Shown here in pieces: positions 12,533 to 42,825 of a stretch of DNA of 64,000 nucleotides. Numbering within the stretch: the first letter of the stretch is position 1; every line of letters begins with the position of its first letter. The notes beneath the pieces are model-generated. The model made no database searches. It was given only the letters and a program-made list of their open reading frames with translations, and was not told the origin of the DNA. The DNA is from Caldilineae bacterium (GTDB lineage Bacteria > Chloroflexota > Anaerolineae > JAAEKA01): positions 987 to 64,986 of the forward strand of contig JACKBK010000018.1 in assembly GCA_020634555.1 (NCBI GenBank). The letters are read 5' to 3'. The translations under genes and the position numbers were made by a program.

Positions 12533-12539
12533 AACTGGT

Positions 12540-12776: not shown

Positions 12777-12841
12777 GAACCAAATCCCGTATCATTATGT
12801 CTACTAAGCATCATGTGGCGCAAGCGCCAAGGAGGTAACTT

Positions 12842-13798: not shown

Positions 13799-13803
13799 CG
13801 GCC

Positions 13804-16308: not shown

Positions 16309-18603
16309 ATGCCACCAGAGTCCTTCATTCCTCGTCCCAAACAAGCCGAAGTGCTGGCCTACACCGGCGGCAAGATGGGCGTTTCGGCGGTGCCGGGCAG
16401 CGGCAAGACCGAAACGTTGTCCCGGCTGGCCGCGCAGCTCATCGCGGGCGGCAGCCTTGCCGGCCATCAGGAAGTGCTGGTGGTGACCCTGGTCAACTCG
16501 GCTGTGGACAACTTCTACCGGCGGGTCAGCAACCTGGTGAAGACGCGCGGGCTGCTGCCCCACGCGGGCTATCGGGTGCGCACGCTGCACGGCCTTTCCC
16601 ACGACATTGTGCGCGAGCGGCCGGCGCTGGTCGGCCTATCGGACAAGTTCGAGATCGTGGACGAGCGCAGCGCGGACGAAATACTGGGCGAGGCGGCCGC
16701 GGCCTGGCTGCGCGGCCATCCGTATACGCTGGAACGCTTCCTCGACCCGGCGCTGGAGTCCAGCAAGCTGGACTGGGTGCGGCGCGACCCACTGCTGGAC
16801 CAGGTCAAGGAGATCGCGCTGGCGTTCACCCGCATGGCCAAAGATCGCCAGTTGGCGCCGGAGCAGGTGCGTGACAAGTTGGATGGGCTGGTCAACCCGC
16901 TGCCGCTGGCCGAGATGGGCTGGGCGATTTACGCCGACTACCAGCGCGCGCTGGCTTACCGCGGCGCGGTGGACTTCGACGACCTGATCCGGCTGGCGCT
17001 GCTGGCGTTGCAGAGCGACGACAAAATGCTGGCCCGGCTGGGCGACCGCTGGCCCTTCGTTTTGGAGGATGAAGCTCAGGACAGCAGCCGCCTGCAGGAA
17101 CAGATTCTGCGCCTGCTCACCGGCCCCGATGGCAACTGGGTGCGGGTCGGCGATCCCAACCAGGCGATCTACGAGACGTTTACCACCGCCAGCCCGGACT
17201 ATCTGCGCGATTTTCTCGACGAAGAGGGTGTTGCCCGGCGGGAACTGCCCAACTCCGGCCGCTCCACCGAGAGCATCATCTGTCTGGCGAACCACCTGGT
17301 GACCTGGACGATGGACGAGCATCCGGTTCATGCGGTGCGTGATGCGCTGTCGCCGCCACCCATCCTGCCCGCGCCACCCGGCGACACGCAGCCCAATCCG
17401 CCCGACGACCCGGCGGCCATCTACTTGATGGGCAACAAGTTCAGCCCCGACGGCGAGTTGCGGGCCGTGGTCGAGTCGCTGGTGCGCTGGCTGCCGGAAC
17501 ACCCGGAAAGCACGGTGGCAGTGCTGACGCCGCGCAACAAGCGCGGCTTCGATGTGGTCGATGCTCTGCGGCAGCGCGATGTTGAGACGGTGGACAGCCT
17601 GCTGCGCAGCTCTACGTCGACCCGCAAGGCTGCCGGCGCACTGGCCAACGTGCTGCACCACCTGGCCGACCCGACCGCGCCGCAGCGGCTCGCCAGGGTC
17701 TTTCAGGTTTGGCGCCGCGCCGACCAGGAGGACCCGGAGGCGTGGCAGCATGTCTTGAAGCTCAGCAAGCTGTTGGCCGGTTGCCGTCAGGTGGAGGAAT
17801 ACGTCTGGCCGAGGGCAGGTCAGGACTGGCTGGCCGAGGCTGATCTCTCCGACGAGGACACGGCGTTGCTGGCGATGTTCCGCGGCGCCATCCAACGCTG
17901 GCAGGGAGCGATCGTGCTGCCGGTGGATCAACTGCTGCTGACGCTGGGCCAGGACCTCTTCACCGAGGCCAGCGACCTGGCGCTGACCCACAAGCTGGCG
18001 GTGACGCTGCGCCAGGCAGCCGAGCAGCATCCGCAGTGGCGCCTGCCGGAGTTGGCCGGCGAGCTGGCGGTCATCGCCCGCAACGAGCGCCGCTTCCTTG
18101 GGTTCAGCGACGAGGACAGCGGTTTTGATCCCAGCGCGTACAAGGGCAAGGTGGTGGTGGCGACGATGCACAAGGCGAAGGGGCTGGAGTGGGACCGGGT
18201 CTACCTGATGTCGGCCAACAGCTATGATTTCCCCTCCGGCCAACCCTACGACCAGTACATCGCCGAGAAATGGTTCGTGCGCGATGAATTGAATCTGGGC
18301 GCGGAGGCGCTGGCACAACTGGAGGCACTGTTGGATAATCAACTCATTTACCGCGAGGGCGATGCTACGGCGCAGGCGCGCCTGGATTACGTTCGCGAGC
18401 GGCTGCGACTGCTGTACGTCGGCATCACCCGGGCGAAGCAGGAACTTGTGGTGACGTGGAATTCTGGGCGTTCAGCAACCAGCAGGCCGGAGGCTGTTCA
18501 GGCGCTGCCCCTTGTTGCGTTGCAAAGCTATTGGGAACTGGGCGGCTGCCGGCAGGACGAGCCAGCGTACGCCGCTGAACCTGTCAAATTCAGGAGTGTT
18601 TGA
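16309..18603 (+). CDS. UvrD/Rep-type SF1 DNA helicase (AddA-like, lacking a RecB nuclease domain)
   Basis: ORF 16267..18603 opens on TTG; the first ATG is at 16309. Motif I AVPGSGKTETL, motif II FVLEDEAQDS, motif III VGDPNQAIY, motifs V/VI VATMHKAKGLEWDRVYL and LLYVGITRAKQEL. Confidence 0.9.
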   Translation: MPPESFIPRPKQAEVLAYTGGKMGVSAVPGSGKTETLSRLAAQLIAGGSLAGHQEVLVVTLVNSAVDNFYRRVSNLVKTRGLLPHAGYRVRTLHGLSHDIVRERPALVGLSDKFEIVDERSADEILGEAAAAWLRGHPYTLERFLDPALESSKLDWVRRDPLLDQVKEIALAFTRMAKDRQLAPEQVRDKLDGLVNPLPLAEMGWAIYADYQRALAYRGAVDFDDLIRLALLALQSDDKMLARLGDRWPFVLEDEAQDSSRLQEQILRLLTGPDGNWVRVGDPNQAIYETFTTASPDYLRDFLDEEGVARRELPNSGRSTESIICLANHLVTWTMDEHPVHAVRDALSPPPILPAPPGDTQPNPPDDPAAIYLMGNKFSPDGELRAVVESLVRWLPEHPESTVAVLTPRNKRGFDVVDALRQRDVETVDSLLRSSTSTRKAAGALANVLHHLADPTAPQRLARVFQVWRRADQEDPEAWQHVLKLSKLLAGCRQVEEYVWPRAGQDWLAEADLSDEDTALLAMFRGAIQRWQGAIVLPVDQLLLTLGQDLFTEASDLALTHKLAVTLRQAAEQHPQWRLPELAGELAVIARNERRFLGFSDEDSGFDPSAYKGKVVVATMHKAKGLEWDRVYLMSANSYDFPSGQPYDQYIAEKWFVRDELNLGAEALAQLEALLDNQLIYREGDATAQARLDYVRERLRLLYVGITRAKQELVVTWNSGRSATSRPEAVQALPLVALQSYWELGGCRQDEPAYAAEPVKFRSV

Positions 18604-19439
18604 TGCCTCTCCCCAGCGATTTTCAGTTCAGCCAGGGCAGTTTGCAGGATTTCGTCGACTGCAAGCGCCGCTTCCAGCTTCGCTACCTGCTCGAGATCGC
18701 CTGGCCGGCTGTGCCGGCCGAGCCATACCTTGAGAACGAGCAGCATCTGCGGCTGGGCGCGCTGTTTCACCTGATGGCGCAGCAGCACGTGCTGGGCGTG
18801 GACGAGGGGCGCTTGACAGCCATGGCGCAGGAGGAGCCGCTGGCCGGCTGGTGGCAGAACTTCCTGCAAGACCGGCCGGCGACGGCGGGCGCGCAGTACC
18901 CGGAGACGGTGCTGTCGATGCCTTTCGGCCAGGCAGCCGAACGCCGGTTGCTGGCGAAGATGGACCTGGTGGTAGTGGACAATGGCAGGGCGACGATCTA
19001 TGACTGGAAGACGTCGCGTCGCCGCCCGCCGCGCGCCTGGCTGGCGGAACGCATGCAGACGCGCGTCTATCCATATCTAATGATTCAGGCGGGAGCGGAG
19101 CTGAACGGCGGCCAGCCGTTCGCGCCCGAACAGGTCGAGATGGTCTATTGGTTCGCCGGTTTCCCCAACCGGCCGGAGCGTTTCAGCTACACGGCGGATC
19201 AGTTTGCAGAGGACGGCGCGTCGCTGGCTGGGCTGCTGGATCAGGCGGCGACGTTGAGCCTGAGCGATGCGCCCTTCCCGCTGACGCCTGACGAGAGCAA
19301 ATGCCGGTTCTGCGTCTATCGCTCGCTGTGCAACCGCGGTGTTGTTGCCGGCGATCTGAACGAGCTGGATTTCGACGACCCCGAACCGGCAGTTGAGTTC
19401 GATCTCGACTTTGAGCAGGTGGCAGAGGTTGAGTATTGA
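18603..19439 (+). CDS. PD-(D/E)XK (RecB/AddB/Cas4-type) nuclease with a 4-Cys Fe-S cluster signature
   Basis: The ATG overlaps the helicase stop (TGATG). Motifs DLVVVDNGRATIYDWKTS (D..D/ExK) and QTRVY (QxxxY). N-terminal Cys (FVDCKRRF) plus C-terminal CRFCVYRSLC (CxxCx5C). Confidence 0.85.
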   Translation: MPLPSDFQFSQGSLQDFVDCKRRFQLRYLLEIAWPAVPAEPYLENEQHLRLGALFHLMAQQHVLGVDEGRLTAMAQEEPLAGWWQNFLQDRPATAGAQYPETVLSMPFGQAAERRLLAKMDLVVVDNGRATIYDWKTSRRRPPRAWLAERMQTRVYPYLMIQAGAELNGGQPFAPEQVEMVYWFAGFPNRPERFSYTADQFAEDGASLAGLLDQAATLSLSDAPFPLTPDESKCRFCVYRSLCNRGVVAGDLNELDFDDPEPAVEFDLDFEQVAEVEY

Positions 19440-32518: not shown

Positions 32519-33619
32519 ATGCGCATCGTCTACGTTCTCCTTTCCCCCACATTCGGCATGCACCAGTACACAGCCGACCTGGTGAACCGGTTAGCCGAGC
32601 AGGGACATGACGCAGCGCTGGTGACAACAACAACCTTGGCGCGCGATCGCTACAGCCCCGCTGTTCGAGTTGTCACCCCGATCACCACGCATAGTACCGG
32701 CTTTAGGGTTGAAGGGCTGCGCGTCTGGCAACTTCGGCGAGTAACGCAGGCAATCGATGCTCTGAAGCCCGAGGTTGTCCACATCACCGGTGTACATGCG
32801 TGGAACGTCCCTCTGGTGCGTTGGCTGCGAAGGAAGGGTATCCCCACAGTGCATACCCTACACGACCTGGATCCACATGCCGGTGTGCGCTTTAGTTCGC
32901 TGATCCGGCATTGGAATCGCCTGATTATTCGTTCTGTGGATCACCTGCTGGTCCATGGCAAGGTCTATGCACAACGATTGCTGGCGTCGGGATGCGATTC
33001 CAGCCGCGTTACCAGTGTGCCGTTGTTGCATCTTTTTCTCAGTTATGATGGATTTGCCAGCCTGGTCAACCGTGAAGTAAACTACAACGCGTGGGGCCTC
33101 TTTTTTGGCCGTTTTGAGAGTTACAAGGGCGTATCACAACTCATCGCAGCAGAGGACATGCTGGTCAAGTCTGATGCCGGCGTGAATCTTGTGCTTGCTG
33201 GAAAAGGGGTCCTGAACGCTGATGTTGCAGCCATCCCGACGGTGGAGGTTCGCAACCATCTCATCGGCGACGACGAAGCCGTGGCTCTCTTCCAGGATTG
33301 TGGAGTTTTAATCTTGCCTTATCTTGACGCGTCTCAGTCTGCACTGGTTGCAGCAGCCTACTTCTTTGCAAAGCCGGTCATCGTGACTGACGTCGGCGCT
33401 TTGGCCGAGTACGTTCAGCAAGGAGTAACAGGCTGGGTCGTTCCCGCCGGAGACTCCCGCGCGTTGGCCGACGCGTGGCGTGATGCACTGGCTGATACAG
33501 AGCGACTGCGACACATGGGTGAGTTAGGAAGAGCGTGGTACAACACTCAGCGGCAGCAGGAAGAGGCAGCGTTGATCGCTATGTACCTTGGGATGAGAAA
33601 AAAAGAGGATTTAGCATGA
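32519..33619 (+). CDS. Glycosyltransferase family 4 (GT-B fold)
   Basis: 366 aa. N-terminal MRIVYVL..GMHQY. C-terminal ..LILPYLDASQSALVAAAYFFAKPVIVTDVGALAEYV resembles the EX7E-region pattern. Confidence 0.8.
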   Translation: MRIVYVLLSPTFGMHQYTADLVNRLAEQGHDAALVTTTTLARDRYSPAVRVVTPITTHSTGFRVEGLRVWQLRRVTQAIDALKPEVVHITGVHAWNVPLVRWLRRKGIPTVHTLHDLDPHAGVRFSSLIRHWNRLIIRSVDHLLVHGKVYAQRLLASGCDSSRVTSVPLLHLFLSYDGFASLVNREVNYNAWGLFFGRFESYKGVSQLIAAEDMLVKSDAGVNLVLAGKGVLNADVAAIPTVEVRNHLIGDDEAVALFQDCGVLILPYLDASQSALVAAAYFFAKPVIVTDVGALAEYVQQGVTGWVVPAGDSRALADAWRDALADTERLRHMGELGRAWYNTQRQQEEAALIAMYLGMRKKEDLA

Positions 33620-35091
33620 AGCTGGAGACAACGGTTGTGAAACAACGCAACCAAACCCAGCGACGGCGGATAAGCTTGCCGCGGCTGAGAATCCGCACAT
33701 CAGAGCGCAAGATATTCCTTTTCTTGGTGGACATTCTGATCGTCAACCTGTCGTTGGCCATATCCTGGTTGCTGGCCGCCGACAGCGGCTTCACAGTCGA
33801 GACGATCACTGCCCCGTACAAGTGGTACCTCACGCTGACACTCGTCTGGTGCATCAGCGCCTTCATTTTCGACGTCTACAACCTGGCGCGGTCAGCCAGC
33901 ACCACCAACATCGTCCGCAACATCGCACTGGCCGGGGTGACTGCCGTGCTGGTCTACACGCTGATCCCCGTCCTCACACCGCCGCTTCAGAATCGAAGGC
34001 TGTTGTTCGTGTTCAGCGCGTTGGTAGTCGGCGGGCTGATTGCCTGGCGGATCGTCTATGCCCAATTGTTTGTGCAGCCACATTTTCGCCAGCGGGCCTT
34101 GGTAATCGGCGCCGGCTGGGCCGGGCGCACCCTCGTCGAGATGTTGAGCAGCGTCACCCACGACGCCAACCCATTCCGGGGTACCGGCTACGATCTGGTC
34201 GGGTTCATCGACGACAATCAGAAGCTGACGGGAACCACTGTTGCTGGTATACCGGTGTTGGGAGGGCGCAATGTGCTGGCACCTATGGCCAACGCGCTGC
34301 ACATCGACGAAGTGATTCTCGCTATCACACAGCGCCATGCCATCGCCGACGACCTGTTCGACGAGATGTTGCGCTGTCGCGAGCTGGGCATCCAGGTGAC
34401 GACCATGTCCAGTGTGTACGAGAAACTGACCGGTCGGGTGCCGGTGCAACATGTGGGACGCGATCTGTATCTGGCGCTTCCGTCGGGCGATCGTGCATCG
34501 GAACGAATTTACTTGGGCATGAAGCGGCTGATTGATCTGGCTATTGCGGCGCTGGGACTGGTGGTCTTGGCGATTGTAGCCGCGGGAGTTTGGGTCGGCA
34601 ACCGCCTCCGCTCCCCAGGCCCGTTGCTCTATCGCCAGGAGCGAGTCGGGAAAGGAGGCCGGTGCTATCAGGTCTACAAGTTTCGTTCCATGATTCCAGA
34701 TGCGGAGGCGACCACCGGCGCGATCTGGGCAACGGCTGACGACAACCGCATCACTCCTGTAGGACGCTTCCTGCGCAAGACACGCCTGGACGAGTTGCCA
34801 CAGTTGATCAACGTACTCAAGGGTGAGATGAGCCTGATCGGGCCACGCCCCGAGCGTCCGGAGTTCGTGGACCACCTGGCTGACACCATTCCGTTCTACC
34901 GTGCTCGGCATGCTGTGCGCCCCGGCATTACCGGCTGGGCGCAGGTTTGCTACCGCTATGGAAGTTCACCGGACGACGCCCGGATCAAGCTGGAGTACGA
35001 CCTGTACTACGTCAATCGCATGAGTCCGCTGCTCGACATTCGCATCATCCTAAGAACCGTTCAGGTCATGCTTGAACTCAAGGGACAGTAA
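33616..35091 (+). CDS. Polyprenyl-phosphate sugar-phosphate transferase (large WbaP/EpsB-type initiating phosphoglycosyltransferase)
   Basis: ORF 33535..35091 trimmed to the ATG at 33616 (ATGA overlap with the GT4 stop). N-terminal TM bundle and Rossmann-like ALVIGAGWAGR. C-terminal catalytic domain YKFRSM..DELPQLINVLKGEMSLIGPRPERPEF. Confidence 0.9.
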   Translation: MKLETTVVKQRNQTQRRRISLPRLRIRTSERKIFLFLVDILIVNLSLAISWLLAADSGFTVETITAPYKWYLTLTLVWCISAFIFDVYNLARSASTTNIVRNIALAGVTAVLVYTLIPVLTPPLQNRRLLFVFSALVVGGLIAWRIVYAQLFVQPHFRQRALVIGAGWAGRTLVEMLSSVTHDANPFRGTGYDLVGFIDDNQKLTGTTVAGIPVLGGRNVLAPMANALHIDEVILAITQRHAIADDLFDEMLRCRELGIQVTTMSSVYEKLTGRVPVQHVGRDLYLALPSGDRASERIYLGMKRLIDLAIAALGLVVLAIVAAGVWVGNRLRSPGPLLYRQERVGKGGRCYQVYKFRSMIPDAEATTGAIWATADDNRITPVGRFLRKTRLDELPQLINVLKGEMSLIGPRPERPEFVDHLADTIPFYRARHAVRPGITGWAQVCYRYGSSPDDARIKLEYDLYYVNRMSPLLDIRIILRTVQVMLELKGQ

Positions 35092-35096
35092 TTTGT

Positions 35097-35381
35097 ATGA
35101 GTAATATCGACATCCGCAGACCAATTCATCATCCCTCCACTGCATCACGAGTCTTCGGCAGCGACGCGGTGGTCATTAGCCCAACCGAGAACATGGTGCG
35201 TATGTTGAACCCCGTCGGCTCGCGCATCTGGCAACTGACCGATGGCAGCAACACCATCGAAGATATTGCGGTCACATTGACCCAGGAGTTCGAGGTAGAC
35301 CTCCCACACGCGCGGCAAAGTGTTGCCGGCTTTGTCGAAGACCTGGTGGATAGAAATCTACTGGACTGGTCGGAGTCTTGA
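35097..35381 (+). CDS. PqqD-family protein (RiPP recognition element / peptide chaperone type)
   Basis: 94 aa, beginning 5 nt after the sugar-transferase stop. RMLNPVGSRIWQLTDGSNTIEDIAVTLTQEFEVDLPHARQSVAGFVEDLVDRNLLD follows the PqqD consensus. Confidence 0.8.
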   Translation: MSNIDIRRPIHHPSTASRVFGSDAVVISPTENMVRMLNPVGSRIWQLTDGSNTIEDIAVTLTQEFEVDLPHARQSVAGFVEDLVDRNLLDWSES

Positions 35382-35397
35382 GCCTGAGTATTGCACT

Positions 35398-37047
35398 TTG
35401 ACAACTGAACAGCTTACAATCTCTCCACTTCCGTCGGTTCGTCGCTTTGAAGCAGTGCTGGAGTGGCTGGCCAATCGCCCACCAATCGTGTGGCGGCTGC
35501 TGGCGTTTGGCCTTGTGGCCGCGATGACCGTCCTGGCGATCCGTCAGGCCAGCATCAGTATCGACGGCGTTCGCTACTTCTGGCTCGACGACGACCAGAT
35601 GATCTCGATGCGCTATGCGCGCAATCTGGCTGAGGGACACGGGTTAGTCTGGAACCCCGGTGAGCGCGTTGAGGGCTACAGCAACTTCCTGTGGACGCTG
35701 GTTATGGCGGGTGTGCATTTGTTGCCGCTGCCGGACGCCACCACCTCGTTGGCCGTCAAGCTGATCAACCTGGGGCTGGCGTTCGCCGTGTTGCTGCTGG
35801 CTGAGCAGTTGCTACGGCGCTTCCTGCCCAAACCTGGTCTGGCGCTGCCGGCTGTGCTGCTGACCCTGGCCTTGTGCGGTGACCTGTTGTACTGGTCAGC
35901 CAACGGTTTTGAGACAACACTGCTGACGGTCATCTTTCTGGCTGTTGTGGTTCGCTTGCTGGACGAGGAGCAGACCGGCCAGCCGCGGCTGTTAACCTAC
36001 CTGTTGATGGGGCTGCTGCCGCTGGTGCGCAGCGATGCCCTGCACATCTGGCTTGGGACAGCGATTCTGGCCTTCGGGATCAGTGGGAATCGGAAGAAGA
36101 CTGTGGTCTTTCTGGCTGTATCCCTTGTCTTGCCGGTACTGCAGGTGGTGGGGCGGCGATGGTACTACGGCGACTGGCTGCCGAACACGTATTATCTGAA
36201 GGTGTACGGCATCGAAGGGCTACCGCGCATCGGCATCGGTTACGTGCGTTTTTTCGTTCATAACTATGCAGTCGCCCTGTTGTTAGCGGTTTTGGGAGCT
36301 TTTCTGGCAGCGCAGCGACGTTGGTGGCTGTTGTTGGCCGGCGTCGGCATCAGCATGGGCTACAGCGTCATGATCGGTGGCGACATCTTTGAGTTCTCGC
36401 GTTTTCTGGCCCATGAGGTTCCAGTGATTCTGGTGCTGGCGGCAGTGGCCGCAGTGCAGTTTGGAGCACGTTGGAACTTGATCGGTTCGTTTCTCGTCCT
36501 GGCAGCGTTATCGATCGCTACACTGGCTGGCGCCGGCGTGGTCTATCCTGACAAGCTGTACTCCAGAAACGGCGGCCTGGAGTACTCAACTGTCGCCGGA
36601 GTTCTGATCGATCGTTATTCGGCCCCGGAGTCCAGTGTTGCAGTAATTGCGGCAGGCGGTATACCGTATTTCAGCCATCGCTACAGCATTGACCTGCTGG
36701 GAAAATCGGATCCTGTTATTGCTCACCGCGCCCCAGTCTGTTGCAACGATGTAATCGGACACAACAAATTTGATGTGGACTACAGTTTGAGCAAGAAACC
36801 GGACATGTTTGTGCCCTTGCTGCCCGATGAGTTGAATCAGTTCGACTGGTGGCTTGATTACCAGGAGCGCGAGTTCGGTGTGTCGTATAACTCAACAATC
36901 GTCAGGAATCCGATATTTCGCAAGGAGTACCTGTCTAACCCAGTTCAGATCGACTTTTTGCTAGAGAAAATGCCCATCTACGTTCGTAGCTCGTCAAGCG
37001 AGATGGAGACACTTTCACTGTGGCAAGCGCCACAGGTTTCCCGCTAA
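35398..37047 (+). CDS. Polytopic GT-C-like membrane glycosyltransferase (arabinofuranosyltransferase-like)
   Basis: ORF 35320..37047. The ATG at 35320 overlaps the PqqD-family gene by 62 nt, so TTG 35398 or GTG 35455 are the likelier starts (uncertain). The first loop carries YFWLDDDQMISMRYARNLAEGHGLVWNPGERVEGYSNFLW, an acidic DDD motif as in GT-C enzymes. More than 10 TM helices. Confidence 0.65.
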   Translation: MTTEQLTISPLPSVRRFEAVLEWLANRPPIVWRLLAFGLVAAMTVLAIRQASISIDGVRYFWLDDDQMISMRYARNLAEGHGLVWNPGERVEGYSNFLWTLVMAGVHLLPLPDATTSLAVKLINLGLAFAVLLLAEQLLRRFLPKPGLALPAVLLTLALCGDLLYWSANGFETTLLTVIFLAVVVRLLDEEQTGQPRLLTYLLMGLLPLVRSDALHIWLGTAILAFGISGNRKKTVVFLAVSLVLPVLQVVGRRWYYGDWLPNTYYLKVYGIEGLPRIGIGYVRFFVHNYAVALLLAVLGAFLAAQRRWWLLLAGVGISMGYSVMIGGDIFEFSRFLAHEVPVILVLAAVAAVQFGARWNLIGSFLVLAALSIATLAGAGVVYPDKLYSRNGGLEYSTVAGVLIDRYSAPESSVAVIAAGGIPYFSHRYSIDLLGKSDPVIAHRAPVCCNDVIGHNKFDVDYSLSKKPDMFVPLLPDELNQFDWWLDYQEREFGVSYNSTIVRNPIFRKEYLSNPVQIDFLLEKMPIYVRSSSSEMETLSLWQAPQVSR

Positions 37048-37159
37048 GACAGCACCTGAACGTGTTCGCTGGTATTGTCTAGCCTTGATCTCTACCGCTA
37101 TTTGCTGGCAAAATAACCGGAGCATCGGAAGTCTGTCTTGAGAAGGCAACGCCCGGCTA

Positions 37160-37188
37160 TTGACACTTTCTCTTGCACATGCTAGAAT
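37160..37188 (+). promoter_or_regulatory. Sigma-70-type promoter for the radical SAM + peptide unit
   Basis: TTGACA, a 17-nt spacer, then TAGAAT, about 60 nt upstream of the rSAM start. Confidence 0.55.
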
Positions 37189-37249
37189 TGCCCCGCGCAA
37201 TGGAGTATGTTTCTTGAAAACACGATGGACTGGAGTGGCTTGAAACAAC

Positions 37250-38473
37250 GTGTATAAGCAAACGAGGCAAACCGTTGAGGTGGCTTTCGCAGGGTGCGAG
37301 CTTCCTGGCCCATCAGACGATCCTTATGAAGCCCTGCTGTTTCGCCTTAAGCAAGAGTTTGTTCCGCTGACCGTTCTGTGGGAGTTAACACACAAATGCA
37401 ACCTAGATTGCATCATGTGCTACAATGTCCCACTAGGCCAGTCTGAGTTGACCACGGTTGAATGTTTTAACGTTCTGGAGCAACTTGCGTCTGCAGGCAC
37501 TCTATACCTGACATTTACTGGTGGTGAGATTCTATCGAGGCGAGATTTTTTTCAGATTGCCCAGCATGCGCGATCTCTTGGATTTGCCGTCAGCCTCAAA
37601 ACCAATGGCACGTTGATTACGCCCGAAAAGGCCGATCAAATCGCCGCTCTCGCACCATTGCGGGTTGACATCAGTTTACTTGGCGCGACTGAAAAGACCT
37701 TCGATGCCATTGCCGGCAGCAAGGACACATTGCGACGAGTGTTGCGTGGTGTGAGGTTGTTGCAGGAACGCAACGTACGTGTAAAGCTTCTGTCGTTGCT
37801 GATGGACTTGAACATGCCCGAGCGCGAGCAGATGATCGACCTGGTGATGGAACTGGGCGTAGACTACGAGCAAGCGTTCAAGATATCCACGGCTGACGAT
37901 GGCACAGACAAAGCAGGTGATCATCAACTCTCCCGTGAACAGATGACAGAGGTTCTTGCGGTGGACCACACGCCATTCAGGCCACGGACCGTGAATGCGA
38001 CCTCGCGTACTTGTTCGGTAAGTCTGAGTTCATGTCTGGTGGATCCGTACGGCAACTTGTTGCCTTGCATCGAGTTGCGTATCCCTGCGGGCAATCTGCG
38101 AAATAAGCCGTTCTCCGAGCTATGGTCTAACGGCGGGATTTTCCGTCAACTGCGAAATCAGCATGTCATGAAGAACCTGCCCGATTGCTGGATATGTCCA
38201 ATCAACCGCTATTGCGAAGGGCGCTGTTCTGGATTGGCTCTTAAGGAACACGGAGACCTTTATGGCGGCCATCTGTTGGCGTGCCAGCAGGCACAGGCCC
38301 GTTTTGCATCGATCTTTCCCAATGAACGGGTCCCAGTAACGCCGCTTCAAACACGCCTGCACGGCTCAACAGTCAAGCGACCCGGATCACCACAAGTCGG
38401 CCAACCGATTCCGCTGTTAGAAGGGGTCAACGTTCACCCAACCTTCTTTATGGAAACGAACGGGTCAGTATAG
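37250..38473 (+). CDS. Radical SAM enzyme with a C-terminal SPASM domain (peptide-maturase type)
   Basis: 407 aa with a GTG start. CNLDCIMC (CxxxCxxC) followed by TFTGGEILSRRDF. SPASM cysteines CSVSLSSCLVDPYGNLLPC .. CWICPINRYCEGRC .. C. Confidence 0.85.
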   Translation: MYKQTRQTVEVAFAGCELPGPSDDPYEALLFRLKQEFVPLTVLWELTHKCNLDCIMCYNVPLGQSELTTVECFNVLEQLASAGTLYLTFTGGEILSRRDFFQIAQHARSLGFAVSLKTNGTLITPEKADQIAALAPLRVDISLLGATEKTFDAIAGSKDTLRRVLRGVRLLQERNVRVKLLSLLMDLNMPEREQMIDLVMELGVDYEQAFKISTADDGTDKAGDHQLSREQMTEVLAVDHTPFRPRTVNATSRTCSVSLSSCLVDPYGNLLPCIELRIPAGNLRNKPFSELWSNGGIFRQLRNQHVMKNLPDCWICPINRYCEGRCSGLALKEHGDLYGGHLLACQQAQARFASIFPNERVPVTPLQTRLHGSTVKRPGSPQVGQPIPLLEGVNVHPTFFMETNGSV

Positions 38474-38498
38474 CACTCAAAAGTCAAAGGAGCATACC

Positions 38499-38693
38499 AT
38501 GAAGACTTTCGATTATTCGACCAACAACCATTCCGTTCAGCGCGCTCCTCAGCCGTGGCAAGAGCCAGCCATCGCCTTCGAACGTTCGCTGATGGCGGAA
38601 GCCCAGGATGGCATCGGTCCTCGCAATGCACCTTCCGGTATCTTGGGGCCGCTTGCCACATCCGGGAGTACTACCACCTCCACTTGTCTTTAG
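38499..38693 (+). CDS. Small 64-aa ORF; candidate RiPP precursor peptide
   Basis: Starts 25 nt after the rSAM stop, with a strong AAAGGAG 6 nt before the ATG. Sequence MKTFDYSTNNHSVQRAPQPWQEPAIAFERSLMAEAQDGIGPRNAPSGILGPLATSGSTTTSTCL, with a Ser/Thr-rich C-terminus and a single Cys. No homology evidence is available. Confidence 0.5.
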   Translation: MKTFDYSTNNHSVQRAPQPWQEPAIAFERSLMAEAQDGIGPRNAPSGILGPLATSGSTTTSTCL

Positions 38694-38709
38694 TACAGTT
38701 TGGCTGCGC

Positions 38710-38762
38710 CTGATCCAGACCTACCTGAACAGTGCTAGGTGGTTCTACCAGGTCTGGATCAG
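38710..38762. other. Long hairpin downstream of the small ORF; possible terminator or processing site
   Basis: CTGATCCAGACCT (38710-38722) pairs perfectly with AGGTCTGGATCAG (38750-38762). The loop is 27 nt and there is no U-tract. Confidence 0.4.
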
Positions 38763-38907
38763 ATAGCGTAGCTCTCTTTAGATTCGCTGAAATCGGCTGA
38801 TGCCAGACCAAGCCGTGTCGCTCCTTCAACGACATGGCTTTTTTGTATGGCTGCAAAGGTTTATAGGATTGTAACAAATCGTCCCCAGGCGCTATGGTAT
38901 AATTATC

Positions 38908-39012
38908 GTAACAGCTCAGCCCTCACTGCTGCGTCCCTCCCGCCTCCGCGGGAGTCTAGTGCCCGCGAAGCCTTGATTCCTGCTTCCGCGGGAATGACGG
39001 GTGAGCAGTTGC
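38908..39012. mobile_element. Short (105 bp) variant of the GTAAC-terminus MITE family, copy D
   Basis: Termini GTAACAGCTCAGCCC / GGGTGAGCAGTTGC. The interior retains CTCCGCGGGA and TTCCGCGGGAATGAC modules. It lies in the 5' region of the C25 peptidase gene. Confidence 0.7.
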
Positions 39013-39072
39013 TAGTTAACGAATAACAACGGCAAACACTGAATAGTCTAAGGCTCGATTAAGGAATACATC

Positions 39073-42000
39073 ATGCGATCACAATTCTGGAAGTCCCTCT
39101 TTCTAATTGCCGTAGTGGCAACGTTGGCAGGAATTCCCCCTGCAACCGATGCTCAGGTAAGCCAACAGGTTACGAAGCGCCGCATTCAAACTCCACTGTA
39201 TGATCTTTCGTCTACCGGGCTTTCAGTTCCCGACAGTGCCACGAACAATGTACCCGGTGCACCGCAGTTGCCTGTCAAAGGCTTTACTGTTCAAGTGCCC
39301 ATGGCAGAAAGCTGGGCTGTGACATTTGAGTCGACAGGAAGCCAGATCTTGCCGGACTCCGTGGTTATCCCCTCAGTTCCAGTGCCCGACCTGAATTTGA
39401 ATACACCAGCAAACTGGTCAAGTGACCTGGACAGTTTGCCATCAGCCGTTCCTGTCGTTGATCAACCTGATGCGTCGATCTATGCTGTCAACGCATTCTA
39501 TCCCGAATCACCGGTCGTTGTGGGTGAGGCGCAGATTCAAAATGGTCAAAAGGTGTTACCGGTTCGCGTCTTCCCTTTCCAGTACAATCCGATTACACAC
39601 CAGGTCCGTTATCATCCCGACATAGAGGTCACTGTCACGGTATCAGGAGCAGGAGTCCCGGAAACAACCGCCACCGTTGCGGAGGATTATAGTGGTCAGG
39701 CTGTGCCGGAGACCGCAGGAAGGGTTCTGCGTATTCACACTGAACAGCGTGGCTTTTACCATCTTACCTATGATGATTTGTTGGCTGCTGGGGTTACAGT
39801 GGGGCCGGGCGGGAGGAACCCAAACAACTTCGCGATGGTGTACAAAGGCGATCCGATCGACATCCAGTTGACCGGAGCTGATGACAACAGCTTCGACCAG
39901 GGTGATTTGGTAGTTTTTTACGCTGTGCCGTATGACCTGGGTCGATACCAGGACTACAACGTCTACTATTTCCTCGAGGACGGAGCTGCGTATGCGTCAC
40001 AAATCGCCTCCCGGCCTGTCACCGCGAGCTTCACACCGACCACTGCTTCAGCTATCACGCAGACATTGCATGTGGAACAGAACCTGGACTATCGCTCAAC
40101 CTATGAACGCCCTAAGCGTGACGATCATTTCTTTGATACTGCGGTTTTTGCCAACGTGTCTACTCCAGTGGTCACGCGTACCTACGCATTAACGCTTGAT
40201 GATCCATTGGCGGTTTCCGGCGACGCTAAGCTTTCTGCGGTGATACACGGCGGCGACGATAGCAACGTCACCTTCAACCCGGACCAGTCGATGCGCCTGC
40301 GATTCAACAACCAGGACATCGGTATGTATCAATGGGACGGCAGTGTGGACTATACTGTTGATGAGATTGTGCCGGCCGCCTCGCTCCAGACAAACTCCTC
40401 TGTCGACTTGACTGTTGCCCTCAACCAGCTCCCCGGTATCACAAGCTATTGGGTATCTCCCGATTGGGTCGAGTTGACCTATCCGGCCCTGGCCGACGCA
40501 GAGAACGACCGTATGTTCATCGAGGGTGTTGTCGCCGGCGGCGGCAACATCGTCACGACTGGCTTCTCGACCAGCAGCGTATCAGTTTATGACGTGCGCG
40601 ACCCGATCGCTCCCAAACTCCTGAGCGGGGTCGGCGCTCAACTTGACGGGTCTTCCTATTCGATCTACTGGACAGAGACCGAAGCGCAACCAGCTTACTT
40701 TCTCACCACAGAAACCGCCATACTCGCGCCGATCGCTATCGAAGTTGACCAACCATCAGGCTGGCGTTCACCCACAAACGACTTCGATTACATCGCCATT
40801 ATTGGAACTGAGCGCAATGCGACCGGCACGACATCGCTAGGCGCAGAGCTAGGCAATGCCGTTCAACCGCTGCTGGACCATCGCAGCGCCGAGGGGCTTC
40901 TGGTGGCCAAGGTAAACCTGCAGGATGTCTACGACGAGTTCAGTAACGGGTTCGTCGATCCGGATGCAATCCGCGCTTTTCTCACCTATGCATACAACAA
41001 TTGGCAGCGACAACCACGTTACGTTCTCCTTGTAGGGGATGGACATTATGCATTCCGTAACGAAGTTTCAACTGCTTTGCACAACACTTTACCCCCCTAT
41101 CTAGTGCATGTTGACCCTTGGATCGGTGAGGTTCCGGCTGACTCTCGCTTCGTGAGTGTGGATGGAGAGGACGACTATCTACCGGAGATGGCTATCGGCC
41201 GCATTCCGGCCAACAGCGCGGCAGACGTGACCGCTGTTGTCAACAAGACACTGGCATATGAAGACGCCGTGGCAACACCGGACGGCGACTGGAACCTGCG
41301 TTCCGTCTACGTCGCTGACAACTATTCGGATCCTGCCGGAGACTTTCATGCCTTGAGCGACAACGTGCGTCTCAACTGGCTGCCTTCTTTGTACACCGGC
41401 CAACAGGTCTACTACCGTATGGACCCGGACCACGATACCGGCCCTGAAATGCGCACAGCTATCAAGAATGCGTTCAACCAGGGAGCCGTATTTTTACAGT
41501 GGTTCGGTCATGGTTCCACAGTTCGCTGGGGATCAGTCAGCATGTACAACATTCTGGACCCAGCCAATTTAACTCCAACCGGACAAACACCCCTTACCAT
41601 GCACAATGCCTGCTGGACCGGTTACTTCGCGGTTTTGTCTAACAACTACCAGGCCCTCGGAGAGACATTGGTGAGCGTTCCCAATAAAGGTTCCGTCGCC
41701 GACTACTCCCCCAGCGGGCTGCATATCGGCGCGGCGCTTCTGACGCTGGACCAAGGCATGCACAAGGCTATGTTCAAGGACCGGATCCCGCGAGCCGGCG
41801 ACGTCGTCAAGGCCAGCAAGGACTACTTCTTCGCCAACAGCCTCGCCTACCACGACCTGATCGACTCGATGATCTTCTTCGGCGATCCGGCTCTGGAATT
41901 GCGTCTGCCTACTGCGGACTTCTCTGATTCCACCATGGAAGTTAGCGAGACGACGGCCGACCCTGGTGACACACTGAACTACACCGTCACGCTTACCAAC

Positions 42001-42825
42001 ACCAGCGTGTTTACAGCACCAAATGTCATCCTGACTGCTGATTATCCGCAGAATCTGGTGACAGTGGTCGACGCAGGCGGCGCAGTTGACAACGGCGACA
42101 CGTTGACGTGGACTCTCTCAGACGTGCGGACTGCGGATGCCGATTCAGCGGTCAAGACGTTCTCATTGGCTGTCAACTCTGGCCTCGCGCCCGGACTGTA
42201 CAACGTGACTGTTCCTGGGCAGATTACCAGCGACATCTCATCGCCTGCCGATCTTCAGGTCAACACCGAGGTAAACGCCGCGCCGCTCATGGTCAACTCG
42301 ACATTGCTTGCCCAGCGCGCCTGGATTCCACCCGGCATGCCTGTCACCGTAACCGCAATGCTGCTGAACTACGGCACCGCTCCCTCTCTGGGGACCCAAG
42401 TCACGCTCACCTTGCCCTCTGAACTGGGTGAGCCAACGTGGATGGCTGCCTCAACAGGTTCGACTCCTGTCTACGACGCCGGCGCCCGCCAGGTCCTTTG
42501 GTCCGGTGATATACTAATAGGCGGCGACGAGACAGTATCATTCAGCAGCATTGTGTCTCCCACCCTGACGGCCTGCGGTACTTTCACGGTGACAGGAGAA
42601 GTGACCGACACCCTTGGCGTGCTGACACCGCTCGATGTGGCCGTCAACCTGGCTGTGCCTGACGTCAACTGTACCGGCAGCGTGAACGTGGTGGATGTCC
42701 AACTCGTCGCTGGCCGCTGGGGAGCGACTCTCGGCCAGCCCGAATACCTGTACGAGTATGACCTGAACGGCAACGACGCCATCGATGTCAACGACATCAT
42801 CATCGCCGCCAATCACTGGGAGTGA
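39073..42825 (+). CDS. Secreted 1250-aa peptidase C25 (gingipain-like) family protein with Ig-like/CARDB-type repeats and a C-terminal dockerin-like module
   Basis: Signal peptide MRSQFWKSLFLIAVVATLAGIPPATDAQ. C25 core VLLVGDGHY, His region WFGHGS and Cys region MHNACWTGYF. C-terminal DVNCTGSVNVVDVQLVAGRWG..YDLNGNDAIDVNDIIIAANHWE forms a duplicated Ca-binding dockerin-type segment. Confidence 0.8.
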   Translation: MRSQFWKSLFLIAVVATLAGIPPATDAQVSQQVTKRRIQTPLYDLSSTGLSVPDSATNNVPGAPQLPVKGFTVQVPMAESWAVTFESTGSQILPDSVVIPSVPVPDLNLNTPANWSSDLDSLPSAVPVVDQPDASIYAVNAFYPESPVVVGEAQIQNGQKVLPVRVFPFQYNPITHQVRYHPDIEVTVTVSGAGVPETTATVAEDYSGQAVPETAGRVLRIHTEQRGFYHLTYDDLLAAGVTVGPGGRNPNNFAMVYKGDPIDIQLTGADDNSFDQGDLVVFYAVPYDLGRYQDYNVYYFLEDGAAYASQIASRPVTASFTPTTASAITQTLHVEQNLDYRSTYERPKRDDHFFDTAVFANVSTPVVTRTYALTLDDPLAVSGDAKLSAVIHGGDDSNVTFNPDQSMRLRFNNQDIGMYQWDGSVDYTVDEIVPAASLQTNSSVDLTVALNQLPGITSYWVSPDWVELTYPALADAENDRMFIEGVVAGGGNIVTTGFSTSSVSVYDVRDPIAPKLLSGVGAQLDGSSYSIYWTETEAQPAYFLTTETAILAPIAIEVDQPSGWRSPTNDFDYIAIIGTERNATGTTSLGAELGNAVQPLLDHRSAEGLLVAKVNLQDVYDEFSNGFVDPDAIRAFLTYAYNNWQRQPRYVLLVGDGHYAFRNEVSTALHNTLPPYLVHVDPWIGEVPADSRFVSVDGEDDYLPEMAIGRIPANSAADVTAVVNKTLAYEDAVATPDGDWNLRSVYVADNYSDPAGDFHALSDNVRLNWLPSLYTGQQVYYRMDPDHDTGPEMRTAIKNAFNQGAVFLQWFGHGSTVRWGSVSMYNILDPANLTPTGQTPLTMHNACWTGYFAVLSNNYQALGETLVSVPNKGSVADYSPSGLHIGAALLTLDQGMHKAMFKDRIPRAGDVVKASKDYFFANSLAYHDLIDSMIFFGDPALELRLPTADFSDSTMEVSETTADPGDTLNYTVTLTNTSVFTAPNVILTADYPQNLVTVVDAGGAVDNGDTLTWTLSDVRTADADSAVKTFSLAVNSGLAPGLYNVTVPGQITSDISSPADLQVNTEVNAAPLMVNSTLLAQRAWIPPGMPVTVTAMLLNYGTAPSLGTQVTLTLPSELGEPTWMAASTGSTPVYDAGARQVLWSGDILIGGDETVSFSSIVSPTLTACGTFTVTGEVTDTLGVLTPLDVAVNLAVPDVNCTGSVNVVDVQLVAGRWGATLGQPEYLYEYDLNGNDAIDVNDIIIAANHWE

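Follow-up and report, generated by a model that had tools for sequence, protein, structure and literature searches.

Which role does a very small open reading frame play that is squeezed between a radical SAM gene and the gene of a secreted cysteine peptidase, in the middle of a polysaccharide locus? We met this question in Caldilineae bacterium (Chloroflexota, Anaerolineae; contig JACKBK010000018.1 of assembly GCA_020634555.1), from which a stretch of 64,000 nucleotides, referred to as the window, was analysed. The frame encodes MKTFDYSTNNHSVQRAPQPWQEPAIAFERSLMAEAQDGIGPRNAPSGILGPLATSGSTTTSTCL, and a preliminary description had proposed it to be the precursor of a modified peptide. The features discussed below are compiled in Table 1.

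Table 1: Features of the peptide locus in positions of the window, with the data on which each assignment is based.
Feature	Positions	Strand	Basis or remark
GT4-family glycosyltransferase	32519..33619	+	Pfam Glyco_trans_4_4, Glyco_trans_1_4, Glycos_transf_1; syntenic in relatives
WbaP-type initiating transferase (polyprenyl-phosphate glycosyl-1-phosphate transferase)	33535..35091	+	Pfam Bac_transf 218.5 bits; syntenic
Discrete PqqD-family RRE, 94 aa	35097..35381	+	PF05402 58.8 bits vs cut-off 23.4
GT-C-fold membrane glycosyltransferase, longest ORF 575 aa	35320..37047	+	AlphaFold2 model, pLDDT 90
Promoter-like site TTGACA, 17 nt, TG-TAGAAT	37160..37188	+	ahead of radical SAM gene; consensus match at 11/12 positions
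Radical SAM/SPASM enzyme, 407 aa	37250..38473	+	Pfam Radical_SAM 80.6 bits, SPASM 29.4 bits
Shine-Dalgarno sequence AAGGAG of peptide gene	38487..38492	+	6 nt ahead of ATG; direct sequence reading
Precursor peptide gene (very probable)	38499..38693	+	ATG-started ORF, 64 aa and stop
Conserved leader block, residues 20-36, WQEPAIAFERSLMAEAQ	38556..38606	+	holds the WxxPxI motif, predicted to bind the RRE
Core motif GPLATS, residues 50-55	38646..38663	+	GP(L/F)x(T/A)S; common to Cys-containing and Cys-less members
Codon of Cys63, the only Cys, candidate radical SAM target	38685..38687	+	co-occurrence with radical SAM gene
Hairpin with 13-bp perfect arms, no T-run	38710..38762	+	CTGATCCAGACCT (38710-38722) pairs with AGGTCTGGATCAG (38750-38762)
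Intrinsic-terminator-like hairpin	38810..38845	+	stem 38810-38840 (11 bp, 9-nt loop), then TTTTTT
Secreted PorU-like C25 cysteine peptidase, 1250 aa	39073..42825	+	Pfam Peptidase_C25 246 bits

To begin with the reality of the gene, the frame, its Ser/Thr-rich tail with the single Cys and the 13-bp hairpin behind it are all present in the sequence as first described. It follows the radical SAM gene after a gap of 25 nt in which no terminator is predicted. The contrast drawn between the ribosome-binding sites of the two genes holds for the AAGGAG of the peptide gene, while the remark that the radical SAM gene had no obvious Shine-Dalgarno sequence has to be qualified: a GGAG approximately 13 nt upstream of its GTG start is the sole element of this kind. 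We found about 77 homologous peptides with a length of 54–85 aa, seven of them close homologues of the window peptide, and all that could be located belong to Chloroflexota/Anaerolineae MAGs. Confident matches are present in 20 of 101 related genomes and in 16 of 18 from the same family, and a profile search against 1.84 billion representatives returned 69 further peptide clusters, again of 54–85 aa. Neither Pfam nor NCBIfam gave any match to the window peptide or to ten diverse homologues, even at E ≤ 10. Small homologous ORFs occupy the same position in every related locus examined, and instead of being disrupted in relatives the reading frame is under purifying selection (pS 0.73; pN/pS 0.32 overall). 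Because of these syntenic homologues and the selection on the frame the ORF is more than a chance occurrence, and we regard it as almost certainly a real, translated gene.

The promoter-like site ahead of the radical SAM gene is the sole one within 34900–39300 and was recognised by its consensus match only. The region of the first hairpin downstream of the peptide gene folds more stably than shuffled sequences (z = −5.4), and it is possible that this hairpin is an RNA-stabilising or attenuating structure. It is unique in the window, has no Rfam match and is not conserved in relatives; a repeat element or a known RNA were rejected as explanations, and we treat it as a local structure of the transcript end. 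The second hairpin looks like a true intrinsic terminator, which had been missed by a terminator pattern scan allowing loops of up to 8 nt.

Two proteins that could act on such a peptide are encoded upstream. The PqqD protein has ScmD, lasso PqqD and PqqD as its best NCBIfam matches, all of them under the cut-off, and it is found in most complete related loci and is absent from orphan pairs of peptide and C25 peptidase. The radical SAM enzyme contains the C50-x3-C54-x2-C57 motif and the conserved SPASM cysteines 255, 273, 313, 316, 322, 326 and 345. Among its best 25 of 61 NCBIfam matches none reached the cut-off, the best one being AhbD with 145 vs 500 bits, and membership in AhbD/NirJ, PqqE, MftC, StsB/AlbA/SkfB or the Scm enzymes was rejected as the scores were far under the respective cut-offs. 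Its nearest solved sequences and folds are SkfB, PqqE, SuiB and anSME, with SkfB, a thioether former, being the nearest structure by sequence (E = 2.7e-13) as well as by fold, and CteB being absent from the PDB sequence matches at E ≤ 1e-5. As these neighbours are peptide-modifying SPASM enzymes the radical SAM enzyme looks like a peptide maturase, but the fold searches with its model do not discriminate between thioether, C–C, epimerase and formylglycine chemistry. The gene order PqqD, radical SAM/SPASM, peptide and C25 peptidase recurs across genera and families. An RRE and a modifying enzyme stand beside the peptide, as expected for an RRE-dependent RiPP precursor, with synteny in about 32 loci.

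The peptide itself shows a leader and a core, as had been proposed, and their anatomy differs from the hydrophilic N-terminus and hinge of the preliminary description. The N-terminal residues 1–19 are variable and the least conserved region, and the recognition block is formed by residues 20–36 with the pattern W-x-x-P-x-I..ER.L...AQ, represented by W20-Q-E-P23-A-I25 in the window peptide. In the 77 peptides W and P are invariant (77/77 each), followed by L+11 (76/77), A+15 (75/77), E+8 and R+9 (74/77), Q+16 (74/77) and I (67/77). A Gly/Pro spacer separates this block from the GP(L/F)x(T/A)S motif, of which G50, P51 and S55 reach at least 90% conservation in an alignment of 69 sequences and which also occurs in most Cys-less peptides. 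The peptide ends with the tail LATSGSTTTSTCL, holding eight Ser/Thr and C63. Selection follows this division with a pN/pS of 0.16 for residues 20–41 and 0.30 for residues 42–64, and the leader block is far more conserved than the core, which is of low complexity and made of Gly, Ser and Thr. From crystallography and mutagenesis it is known that a [Y/W]xxPx[LVIFA] leader motif is bound by discrete PqqD-type RREs and that W/Y is located at −15/−16 from the cleavage site in lasso and LPP leaders (Popov et al., Nat Commun 2026, PMC13381572). The window peptide carries exactly such a [Y/W]xxPx[L/V/I/F/A] motif, and because of the −15/−16 spacing the boundary between leader and core probably lies after the near-invariant A35-Q36 and not at the Gly/Pro hinge. 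With the motif, the PqqD and radical SAM/SPASM genes nearby and the small homologues at the same position, the idea of a precursor is well borne out, and we consider it very probable that the peptide is bound by an RRE.

What could be modified in this precursor? A single Cys is present in 68 of the 69 Cys-containing peptides; in 54 of 69 it stands at the very C-terminus or one residue before it, and it follows GPL at a spacing of 7 to 12, with one case of 15. Where a radical SAM gene immediately precedes the peptide gene, in approximately 32 distinct loci, the peptide always has this C-terminal Cys. The Cys-less peptides (13 of 13) are immediately preceded by PqqD and lack the radical SAM gene; for four of these 13 loci this was predicted from the tail sequence alone and then confirmed. 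About ten further pairs of Cys peptide and C25 have neither an adjacent radical SAM gene nor PqqD and therefore action in trans must be assumed; in five of six genomes with such extra pairs one radical SAM orthologue is encoded elsewhere. The co-variation of Cys and radical SAM gene amounts to only two independent contrasts on the C25 tree in an independent-pairs test, so that no significance can be claimed for it. Nevertheless, since the two go together, C63 is the likely target of the radical SAM enzyme as judged from sequence. The more specific proposal of a ranthipeptide-type Cys-to-Thr thioether is not supported: the peptide has one Cys instead of several, the tail Thr residues show no conservation within the family and no curated maturase family is reached. 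A thioether of some kind would still be our suggestion for the modification, made at slightly less than even odds.

Directly downstream of the peptide gene lies the C25 peptidase, and the adjacency of the two is the most invariant feature of the system, being observed in nearly every locus that extends far enough to include the pair and persisting in the absence of the radical SAM gene and PqqD. In the window's genus the hairpin and the terminator are located between both genes, and in some relatives they are only about 40 nt apart. The peptidase shows a signal peptide and the catalytic residues His (in WFGHGS) and Cys (in HNACWTG), together with a DUF11 repeat and a C-terminus that resembles a dockerin, and due to the signal peptide and the intact His/Cys dyad it is apparently a secreted and active enzyme. 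It matches the NCBIfam PorU sortase model NF033707 over residues 215–969 with 178.7 bits and does not reach the cut-off of 420. That C25 processes the peptide is a tentative assumption with somewhat less than an even chance; the locus contains neither an exporter nor a cytoplasmic leader peptidase, and the peptide has no signal sequence whereas C25 is secreted.

The surroundings are those of polysaccharide biosynthesis. The GT4 gene is the first of the polysaccharide block, which lies ahead of the cassette in most related loci, and the WbaP-type transferase, whose true start is probably downstream of 33535, exceeds the cut-off of NCBIfam TIGR03025 (375.5 vs 295.55 bits). Loci of relatives also hold genes for Wzc-like and PMT_2 proteins, an HprK-like kinase and a PF14907 nucleotidyltransferase. 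The membrane protein between PqqD and the radical SAM enzyme, whose gene probably starts near 35386 (approximately 553 aa), could be assigned to the GT-C enzymes, as its model matched STT3/PglB, AftB (TM 0.56), ArnT (TM 0.54–0.57) and ALG9 in a Foldseek search against the PDB with a probability of 1.0 and as the fold is polytopic and its first external loop carries an acidic motif (DDD, residues 91–93, with D91-D92 at least 90% conserved). At this position in the cassette the gene is found only in the window's genus, and its family comprises more than 1200 homologues from several phyla. A peptide-specific enzyme was rejected, as the family is widespread and homologues occur in three other contexts without PqqD or radical SAM neighbours, and the GT-C enzyme may serve the polysaccharide alone. 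As it is encoded inside the cassette, and the cassette inside a polysaccharide locus, glycosylation of the Ser/Thr tail of the peptide is possible.

Taken together we propose, with a probability of roughly 0.7, that the ORF encodes the precursor of an uncharacterised RRE-dependent peptide-maturation pathway that, within the sampling available, occurs only in Anaerolineae (Chloroflexota). The radical SAM and the peptide gene would be co-transcribed from the promoter-like site at 37160, with the much stronger ribosome-binding site favouring the peptide and most transcripts ending at the hairpin/terminator pair (38710–38845). The stand-alone PqqD would then bind the leader block of residues 20–36 through W20-x-x-P23-x-I25, as suggested by the motif and by what was found experimentally for the RREs of lasso peptides and LPP. 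The radical SAM enzyme would act on C63, a target supported by the co-occurrence described above. The most likely reaction might be an intramolecular S–C bond (thioether) with one of the residues of the Gly/Ser/Thr-rich stretch that follows GPL, giving a small C-terminal ring, with this chemistry being a guess. Finally the leader would be removed, probably after A35-Q36, and the product would act together with the PorU-like C25, in the simplest version by C25 processing the exported peptide.

One could also think of an ordinary secreted RiPP of the sactipeptide or ranthipeptide type with an antimicrobial or signalling function, for which C25 would be an extracellular leader protease like NisP, the leader protease of nisin, or just an unrelated neighbour. 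A radical SAM/SPASM enzyme with SkfB as the nearest solved maturase, an RRE and a small Cys peptide in one locus would fit to this, and so would the hairpin 3′ of the structural gene, a common feature of RiPP operons. However, most characterised sactipeptides and ranthipeptides contain several Cys and not one, the cut-offs of the curated maturases are not reached and neither transporter nor immunity genes are present in the locus. Moreover, the Cys-less paralogues without radical SAM gene retain PqqD and C25, and therefore the cross-link is not the common denominator of the system; a leader much more conserved than a low-complexity Gly/Ser/Thr core is also unlike typical bacteriocin cores. We thus regard an ordinary RiPP as unlikely.

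Also improbable, in our opinion, is that the peptide is primarily a dedicated partner of C25 instead of a free natural product. After its maturation and a possible glycan attachment the peptide would take part in a transpeptidation of the sortase type on the cell surface, in which it could be the substrate, the acceptor nucleophile or a linker and by which proteins or the peptide itself would be tied to the polysaccharide made by the WbaP-type, GT4 and GT-C enzymes. The invariant adjacency of peptide and C25, the match to the PorU sortase model and the polysaccharide genes around the pair, including the additional ones of the relatives, speak for such a partnership. Furthermore, PorU of P. gingivalis joins the C-termini of its cargo to a glycan-borne amine whose synthesis requires WbaP, and it uses free peptides as nucleophiles if that acceptor is missing (PMC4560394). 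On the other hand the PorU score is far under the cut-off, neither a cargo with a cleavable C-terminal domain nor an export route for the peptide was identified, the sequence does not separate transpeptidation from simple hydrolysis, and the association with polysaccharide genes could reflect inheritance of a neighbourhood within one class. The most far-reaching version, which we mention as a speculation and hold to be quite improbable, would be that peptide and C25 form the core of an unrecognised, T9SS-independent system for cell-surface assembly in Chloroflexota. The PqqD-bound peptide would be ring-closed at its Cys by the radical SAM enzyme or, in sister clusters, phospho-glycosylated by the HprK-like kinase and the nucleotidyltransferase, possibly loaded with or onto the polyprenyl-linked glycan of the WbaP-type, GT4 and GT-C enzymes, and would serve the PorU-like sortase as substrate or amine-bearing linker. 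If true, it would be a ribosomal counterpart of the linking sugar of the A-LPS in P. gingivalis.

Small inhibitors encoded beside secreted cysteine proteases are known, and as every C25 paralogue of this type is directly preceded by a peptide of its own, the peptide might be a cytoplasmic inhibitor or chaperone of C25, comparable to staphostatin or prodomain-like inhibitors, with PqqD and the radical SAM enzyme being secondary. This is very improbable, as the invariant part of the peptide is the RRE-binding motif and not a protease-binding surface, PqqD immediately precedes the peptide gene in all Cys-less loci, C25 has a propeptide-like region of its own and other C25 paralogues in the same genome have no such peptide. 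A chance open frame in the 3′ UTR of the radical SAM gene, to which the shortness of the ORF and its missing Pfam and NCBIfam matches would fit, is effectively refuted by the strong Shine-Dalgarno sequence, the number of homologous ORFs of similar length, the frame-specific purifying selection and the conserved position.

RRE-dependent radical SAM peptides as such are already known, but no curated model covers this family and the literature searched contained no paper on it, where queries for PqqD/radical SAM/C25 peptidase systems, SPASM precursors of Anaerolineae, PorU in Chloroflexi and SynChlorMet led to none. Its features have not been described together: a WxxP leader of the lasso/LPP type, a single C-terminal Cys tracking the radical SAM gene, a large secreted PorU-like cysteine peptidase as an almost obligatory partner, a location inside polysaccharide loci, and sister clusters with kinase and glycosylation genes in place of the radical SAM enzyme. 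Little is known about the envelope biology of Anaerolineae, filamentous bacteria that are abundant in sludge, sediments and soils, and if peptide and peptidase cooperate this would be a new way to build or decorate their cell surface. It would also offer a testable function for the lasso/LPP-like tailoring modules of capsule loci, for which no biological role has been established so far (PMC13381572). The variant of the window is compact, with radical SAM enzyme, PqqD and peptide comprising less than 600 codons, and thus convenient for heterologous reconstitution.

How does the system relate to known ones? It is distant from the PQQ and mycofactocin pathways with scores of 111.6 vs 381 bits for PqqE, 33.8 vs 46 for PqqD and 115 vs 265 for MftC, and the peptide ends with TCL and has no E-x3-Y core, whereas PqqA needs E-x3-Y and MftA a C-terminal VY. 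SynChlorMet consists of the same kinds of parts (the HprK-like ScmC, the PqqD-like ScmD and the radical SAM/SPASM enzymes ScmE and ScmF), ScmD being the best NCBIfam match of the window PqqD and ScmC matching the kinase-like genes of the relatives. The scores nevertheless stay low (ScmD 42.8 vs 100, ScmE 77 vs 400, ScmF 65.6 vs 400), the window has one radical SAM gene instead of two and no ScmC-like gene, and we found no described link of SCM to C25.

With the thioether maturases SkfB, AlbA and StsB of sactipeptides and CteB and PapB of ranthipeptides the window enzyme shares the radical SAM core with a full SPASM domain, and the system would also share the Cys-containing ribosomal substrate and the dependence on an RRE, both predicted here from sequence. 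It differs from them in having the RRE as a separate protein and not as an N-terminal domain and in a precursor with one C-terminal Cys. The scores for StsB (116 vs 625 bits), SkfB (55 vs 300) and AlbA (53 vs 850), together with the separate RRE gene, speak against membership in the sactipeptides, and the predominance of single-Cys peptides (68/69) and the absence of any SCIFF-type model among the best 25 of 61 NCBIfam matches against membership in the ranthipeptides. Like PorU, the window C25 is secreted, its catalytic C25 domain is accompanied by an Ig-like and propeptide-like region at the N-terminus, it can be aligned over approximately 750 residues, and its gene is linked in the genome to a glycan pathway of the WbaP type. 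In contrast to the T9SS sortase it stays under the family cut-off (178.7 vs 420), carries a dockerin-like C-terminus instead of the T9SS C-terminal domain and is paired with a small, predictedly modified peptide, which has not been described for PorU. No T9SS is known from Chloroflexota.

Parallels for the leader come from Bacillota. The paeninodin-type (phosphorylated) lasso peptides have a WxxP leader and a discrete RRE with a hydrophobic Trp pocket as here, and their tailoring set of HprK-like kinase, nucleotidyltransferase and sulfotransferase also occurs in the loci of the relatives. Neither a macrolactam synthetase (asparagine-synthetase-like cyclase) nor a B2 transglutaminase-type peptidase was present in the loci examined, and the window's system has the radical SAM enzyme and C25 instead of cyclase and B2. 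From LPP (LppA, LppB RRE, LppK, LppS, LppD, LppN) the locus differs by its phylum, its radical SAM/SPASM enzyme, the W-type and not Y-type leader, the GP(L/F)x(T/A)S...C core and the obligatory C25 neighbour, and within 32519–42825 it is without kinase, SipW-like signal peptidase, nucleotidyltransferase and MsbA-like exporter; the kinase of the relatives as query had no match in the whole, 75%-complete genome. Nevertheless, LPP and the window's system both combine a small precursor with a [Y/W]xxPx(hydrophobic) leader and a discrete PqqD-type RRE, their cores are linear and contain Ser, their clusters are located inside capsular or exopolysaccharide loci (PMC13381572), and relatives of the window cassette in other genera carry the HprK-like kinase together with the PF14907 nucleotidyltransferase.

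Several lines of evidence show that the peptide ORF is a genuine gene. Seven homologues with 67–98% identity came from a word-indexed search, and their profile gave confident matches in 20 of 101 related genomes, including 16 of the 18 from the same family; four further genome matches were weak (E > 1e-3) and the two that were checked, one of them NuoH, were false. An exhaustive profile search among 1.84 billion representative proteins yielded 70 matches, 69 of them peptides of 54–85 aa. The remaining match (P0016) was rejected as spurious: it is a repeat protein of low complexity (929 aa) with nine repeats containing NEFAIGFERTTMNEA, and its resemblance to the leader block looks like chance. 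Scanning species-representative genomes gave 23 loci, all in MAGs labelled Anaerolineae, Anaerolineales, Chloroflexi, Chloroflexia or Chloroflexota; the window's own genus is labelled Caldilineales by one source, and every organism with the peptide family is an uncultured MAG. Synonymous sites are almost saturated in a comparison of five close relatives (pS 0.73), and pN/pS is 0.57 for residues 1–19, 0.16 for 20–41 and 0.30 for 42–64. The homologous small ORF that the preliminary description had called for is present at syntenic loci. When 17-kb stretches surrounding the peptide matches were searched by tblastn with the window's proteins, the genes for PqqD (a discrete RiPP recognition element, RRE), radical SAM enzyme, peptide and C25 peptidase (PorU-like) showed one and the same order in different genera and families, often with GT4 and WbaP-type genes in front. 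The peptide has no match among Pfam or NCBIfam models, and the literature searched contained no paper on this combination of peptide, radical SAM/PqqD and C25. We class the peptide as an RRE-dependent radical SAM peptide whose coupling to a PorU-like peptidase and polysaccharide genes is unusual and puzzling.

Genes around the peptide in the window and in L094, a second locus of the same genome (positions within each stretch)
Locus	Feature	Position	Strand	Remark
Window	GT4 glycosyltransferase	32519-33619	+	
Window	WbaP-type initiating sugar-phosphate transferase	33535-35091	+	
Window	PqqD	35097-35381	+	
Window	575-aa membrane protein	ends 37047	+	
Window	Radical SAM/SPASM enzyme	37250-38473	+	407 aa
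Window	Peptide ORF	38499-38693	+	product MKTFDYSTNNHSVQRAPQPWQEPAIAFERSLMAEAQDGIGPRNAPSGILGPLATSGSTTTSTCL
Window	C25 peptidase	39073-42825	+	1250 aa; signal peptide, catalytic His and Cys, dockerin-like end
L094	C25 paralogue	11365-14466	-	further C25-like match nearby
L094	PqqD-like gene	15133-15486	+	divergent from C25 gene
L094	40-aa ORF	15677-15799	+	product MNQTAPVKKTYETPTLTKHQRLQKVTLGTVSTSPWLMPGQ
L094	HprK-like P-loop protein	15860-16999	+	
L094	Large ORF	17010-18674	-	putative radical SAM-like

The peptide gene has an ATG start with AAGGAG 6 nt before it and follows the radical SAM stop after 25 nt, with no terminator predicted between the two genes. The sole good sigma-70-like site in 34900–39300 (TTGACA-17-TGnTAGAAT, 37160–37188) lies just 5' of the radical SAM gene. 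A contrast in Shine-Dalgarno strength had been described for these two genes; the AAGGAG of the peptide bears this out, but the GTG start of the radical SAM gene still has a GGAG, though a distant one. The perfect 13-bp hairpin reported after the peptide stop could be confirmed (38710–38762); it has no Rfam match and no other copy in the window, and it is not kept in the relatives. A second hairpin followed by TTTTTT lies at 38810–38845, and the region 3' of the stop folds much more stably than its shuffles (z = -5.4). Further upstream, the longest ORFs for the WbaP-type transferase and the 575-aa membrane protein overlap the preceding genes by 85 nt (33535–33619) and 62 nt (35320–35381). For the latter, comparison with the close relative L001 suggests that the true start lies about 22 codons further in, only a few nt past the PqqD stop, which would mean tight translational coupling.

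Across 77 peptides a variable N-terminus, usually with basic residues at its end, precedes a conserved block W-[EQ]-[EA]-P-x-I-x-[LF]-E-R-x-L-x-x-x-A-Q, in which W and P occur in all 77 peptides, I in 67, E+8 and R+9 (relative to W) in 74, L+11 in 76, A+15 in 75 and Q+16 in 74. Next, a Gly/Pro-rich spacer that differs in length between peptides leads to the core motif GP(L/F)x(T/A)S (G50, P51 and S55 at least 90% conserved) and a Gly/Ser/Thr-rich stretch. The tail holds a Cys in 69 of the 77 peptides (exactly one in 68 of these). In 54 of them it is the final or penultimate residue, and it stands 7–12 residues past the L/F of GPL, with one exception at 15. The WxxPxI block fits the motif [Y/W]xxPx[L/V/I/F/A] of lasso peptides and linear polyphosphorylated peptides (LPPs), which is bound by discrete PqqD-type RREs as seen in crystal structures, pull-downs and NMR, and whose W/Y stands at -15/-16 from the cleavage site (PMC13381572). 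Counting 16 residues from W20 leads to Q36 of the near-invariant AQ, and the leader/core boundary is therefore put, as probable by this analogy, after Q36. Thus, the proposed organisation of leader and core holds, but the recognition part would be residues 20–36 and not the whole N-terminal two-thirds.

The radical SAM enzyme possesses the CxxxCxxC motif and the full set of conserved SPASM cysteines. Among the NCBIfam matches listed for it none reached its cut-off: the best general match was AhbD (145 vs 500) and the best peptide maturases were StsB (116 vs 625), MftC (115 vs 265) and PqqE (112 vs 381). SkfB and PqqE are its nearest solved sequences, and its AlphaFold2 model (pLDDT 81) most resembles SkfB, BlsE, PqqE, SuiB and anSME, which places it among the peptide-modifying SPASM enzymes without discriminating between their chemistries. 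Our preferred guess, with a probability of about 0.4–0.5, is a thioether from Cys63, the sole Cys of the window's peptide, to some residue of the Gly/Ser/Thr stretch. This guess rests on SkfB as the nearest neighbour and on thioethers being the best-known products of SPASM enzymes that act on peptide Cys residues. The ranthipeptide-type Cys-to-Thr link suggested earlier finds no support, since there is a single Cys and the family does not conserve the Thr residues of the tail.

The distribution of the Cys, which tracks the radical SAM gene, supports it as the likely target. Radical SAM stands immediately 5' of the peptide gene at about 32 distinct loci, and every such peptide has a C-terminal Cys. 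Nine loci from two genera contain PqqD, peptide and C25 without radical SAM, and their peptides lack Cys (tails such as FGPLSTTGF, FGPFSTTS and GPFGPLTS). Four more Cys-less representatives from the profile search were chosen by their tails alone before the contigs were checked; all four have PqqD directly upstream and no radical SAM gene, and the three contigs that extend far enough have C25 next to the peptide. Both cluster types occur together in several genomes of one genus. According to the C25 protein tree Cys was lost in two independent events, one of them in the clade sister to that of the window (support 100), and both coincide with absent radical SAM; the direction is perfectly consistent, but two events are too few for a statistical claim. 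About ten orphan pairs of Cys peptide and C25 have neither radical SAM nor PqqD nearby, and as five of six such genomes encode a single radical SAM orthologue elsewhere (60–62% identity), its action in trans is plausible.

The C25 gene is the most constant neighbour of the peptide; it comes immediately after the peptide gene at nearly every locus of sufficient length, also at those without radical SAM or PqqD. Some orphan pairs (among L056, L057, L063, L071 and L072) stand behind proteins of about 1000 aa with non-catalytic similarity to C25 genes (DUF11 and GEVED domains in the one scanned, L056), others behind Wzc-like tyrosine autokinase and PMT_2 genes, and several peptide-C25 units can be tandem on one contig. 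In L049 (G011:C54, 8508–9305) two tandem divergent peptides (leader WEDPGLTVER..., cores ...SPFVQSAAPPACTTP and ...SPFVNSTTIVCVIDF) lie by a C25 gene, and neither PqqD nor radical SAM is encoded nearby. The neighbours transcribed divergently encode a 548-aa protein that weakly matches BTAD, a Polysacc_synt_2 dehydratase, a product resembling nucleotidyltransferases by tblastn and a Wzc-like kinase. The window's C25 product is predicted to be secreted with its catalytic dyad present, and a conservative reading would make it an extracellular processing protease for the peptide. Its best curated match, below cut-off, is the T9SS sortase PorU (residues 215–969), which cuts its cargo and joins the new C-terminus to a glycan amine, the glycan synthesis needing WbaP; without that acceptor PorU uses peptides from the medium (PMC4560394). 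The window likewise has a WbaP-type gene, glycosyltransferases and a small, putatively matured peptide; the parallel is suggestive, and a sortase-like role would be a novel but improbable reading. Both the protease and the sortase reading are weakened by the lack of an exporter gene at the locus and of a signal sequence in the peptide.

The 575-aa membrane protein has a GT-C fold (model pLDDT 90) matching STT3/PglB, AftB, ALG9 and ArnT. As its family is widespread (>1200 members in several phyla) and has no peptide link elsewhere, it may serve the polysaccharide pathway rather than the peptide. In L001 an SGNH/GDSL (AlgX-like) gene (2135–3322), which the window lacks, lies between the GT-C and radical SAM genes, and a deltaproteobacterial GT-C homologue (L087) is also located between GDSL-type genes. 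In L028 of the same genus (G002:C15: 49000–66000) radical SAM, GT-C and C25 are in several frameshifted pieces and the peptide tail is altered to GPLCLVWEHRLHAVC, reflecting either locus decay or indel errors of a few-contig assembly.

In the relatives the interval from the WbaP-type gene to PqqD recurrently encodes HprK-related kinase-like proteins (weak NCBIfam HprK_rel_A/B and ScmC, Pfam ScmC), PF14907 nucleotidyltransferases, sulfotransferases, SIS-domain proteins, further glycosyltransferases, PMT_2-type GT-C proteins and Wzc-like tyrosine autokinases. The locus in the window's genus lacks kinase and nucleotidyltransferase and has the GT-C protein in their place. Two same-genus genomes have a further locus with a PF14907 nucleotidyltransferase, a C25 paralogue and an HprK-like kinase (L084, G003:C4; L085, G001:C10), where neither a peptide of this family nor an obvious WxxP/YxxP ORF turned up in a simple pattern search. 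Paeninodin-type lasso peptides and LPPs are also tailored by a set of kinase, nucleotidyltransferase and sulfotransferase; their kinase phosphorylates a core Ser, and their clusters are likewise found in capsule loci (PMC8498205; PMC13381572). The window's own genome holds a second cassette (L094, contig C23: 148000–167000, about 11365–18674), and YxxPxL..HQ.L in its 40-aa ORF closely fits the LPP leader consensus YxxPxVLxHQxI. Together with the WxxP peptide of the window, W-type and Y-type leaders thus exist in one genome, both by PorU-like genes, which recalls the leader discrimination described in PMC13381572.
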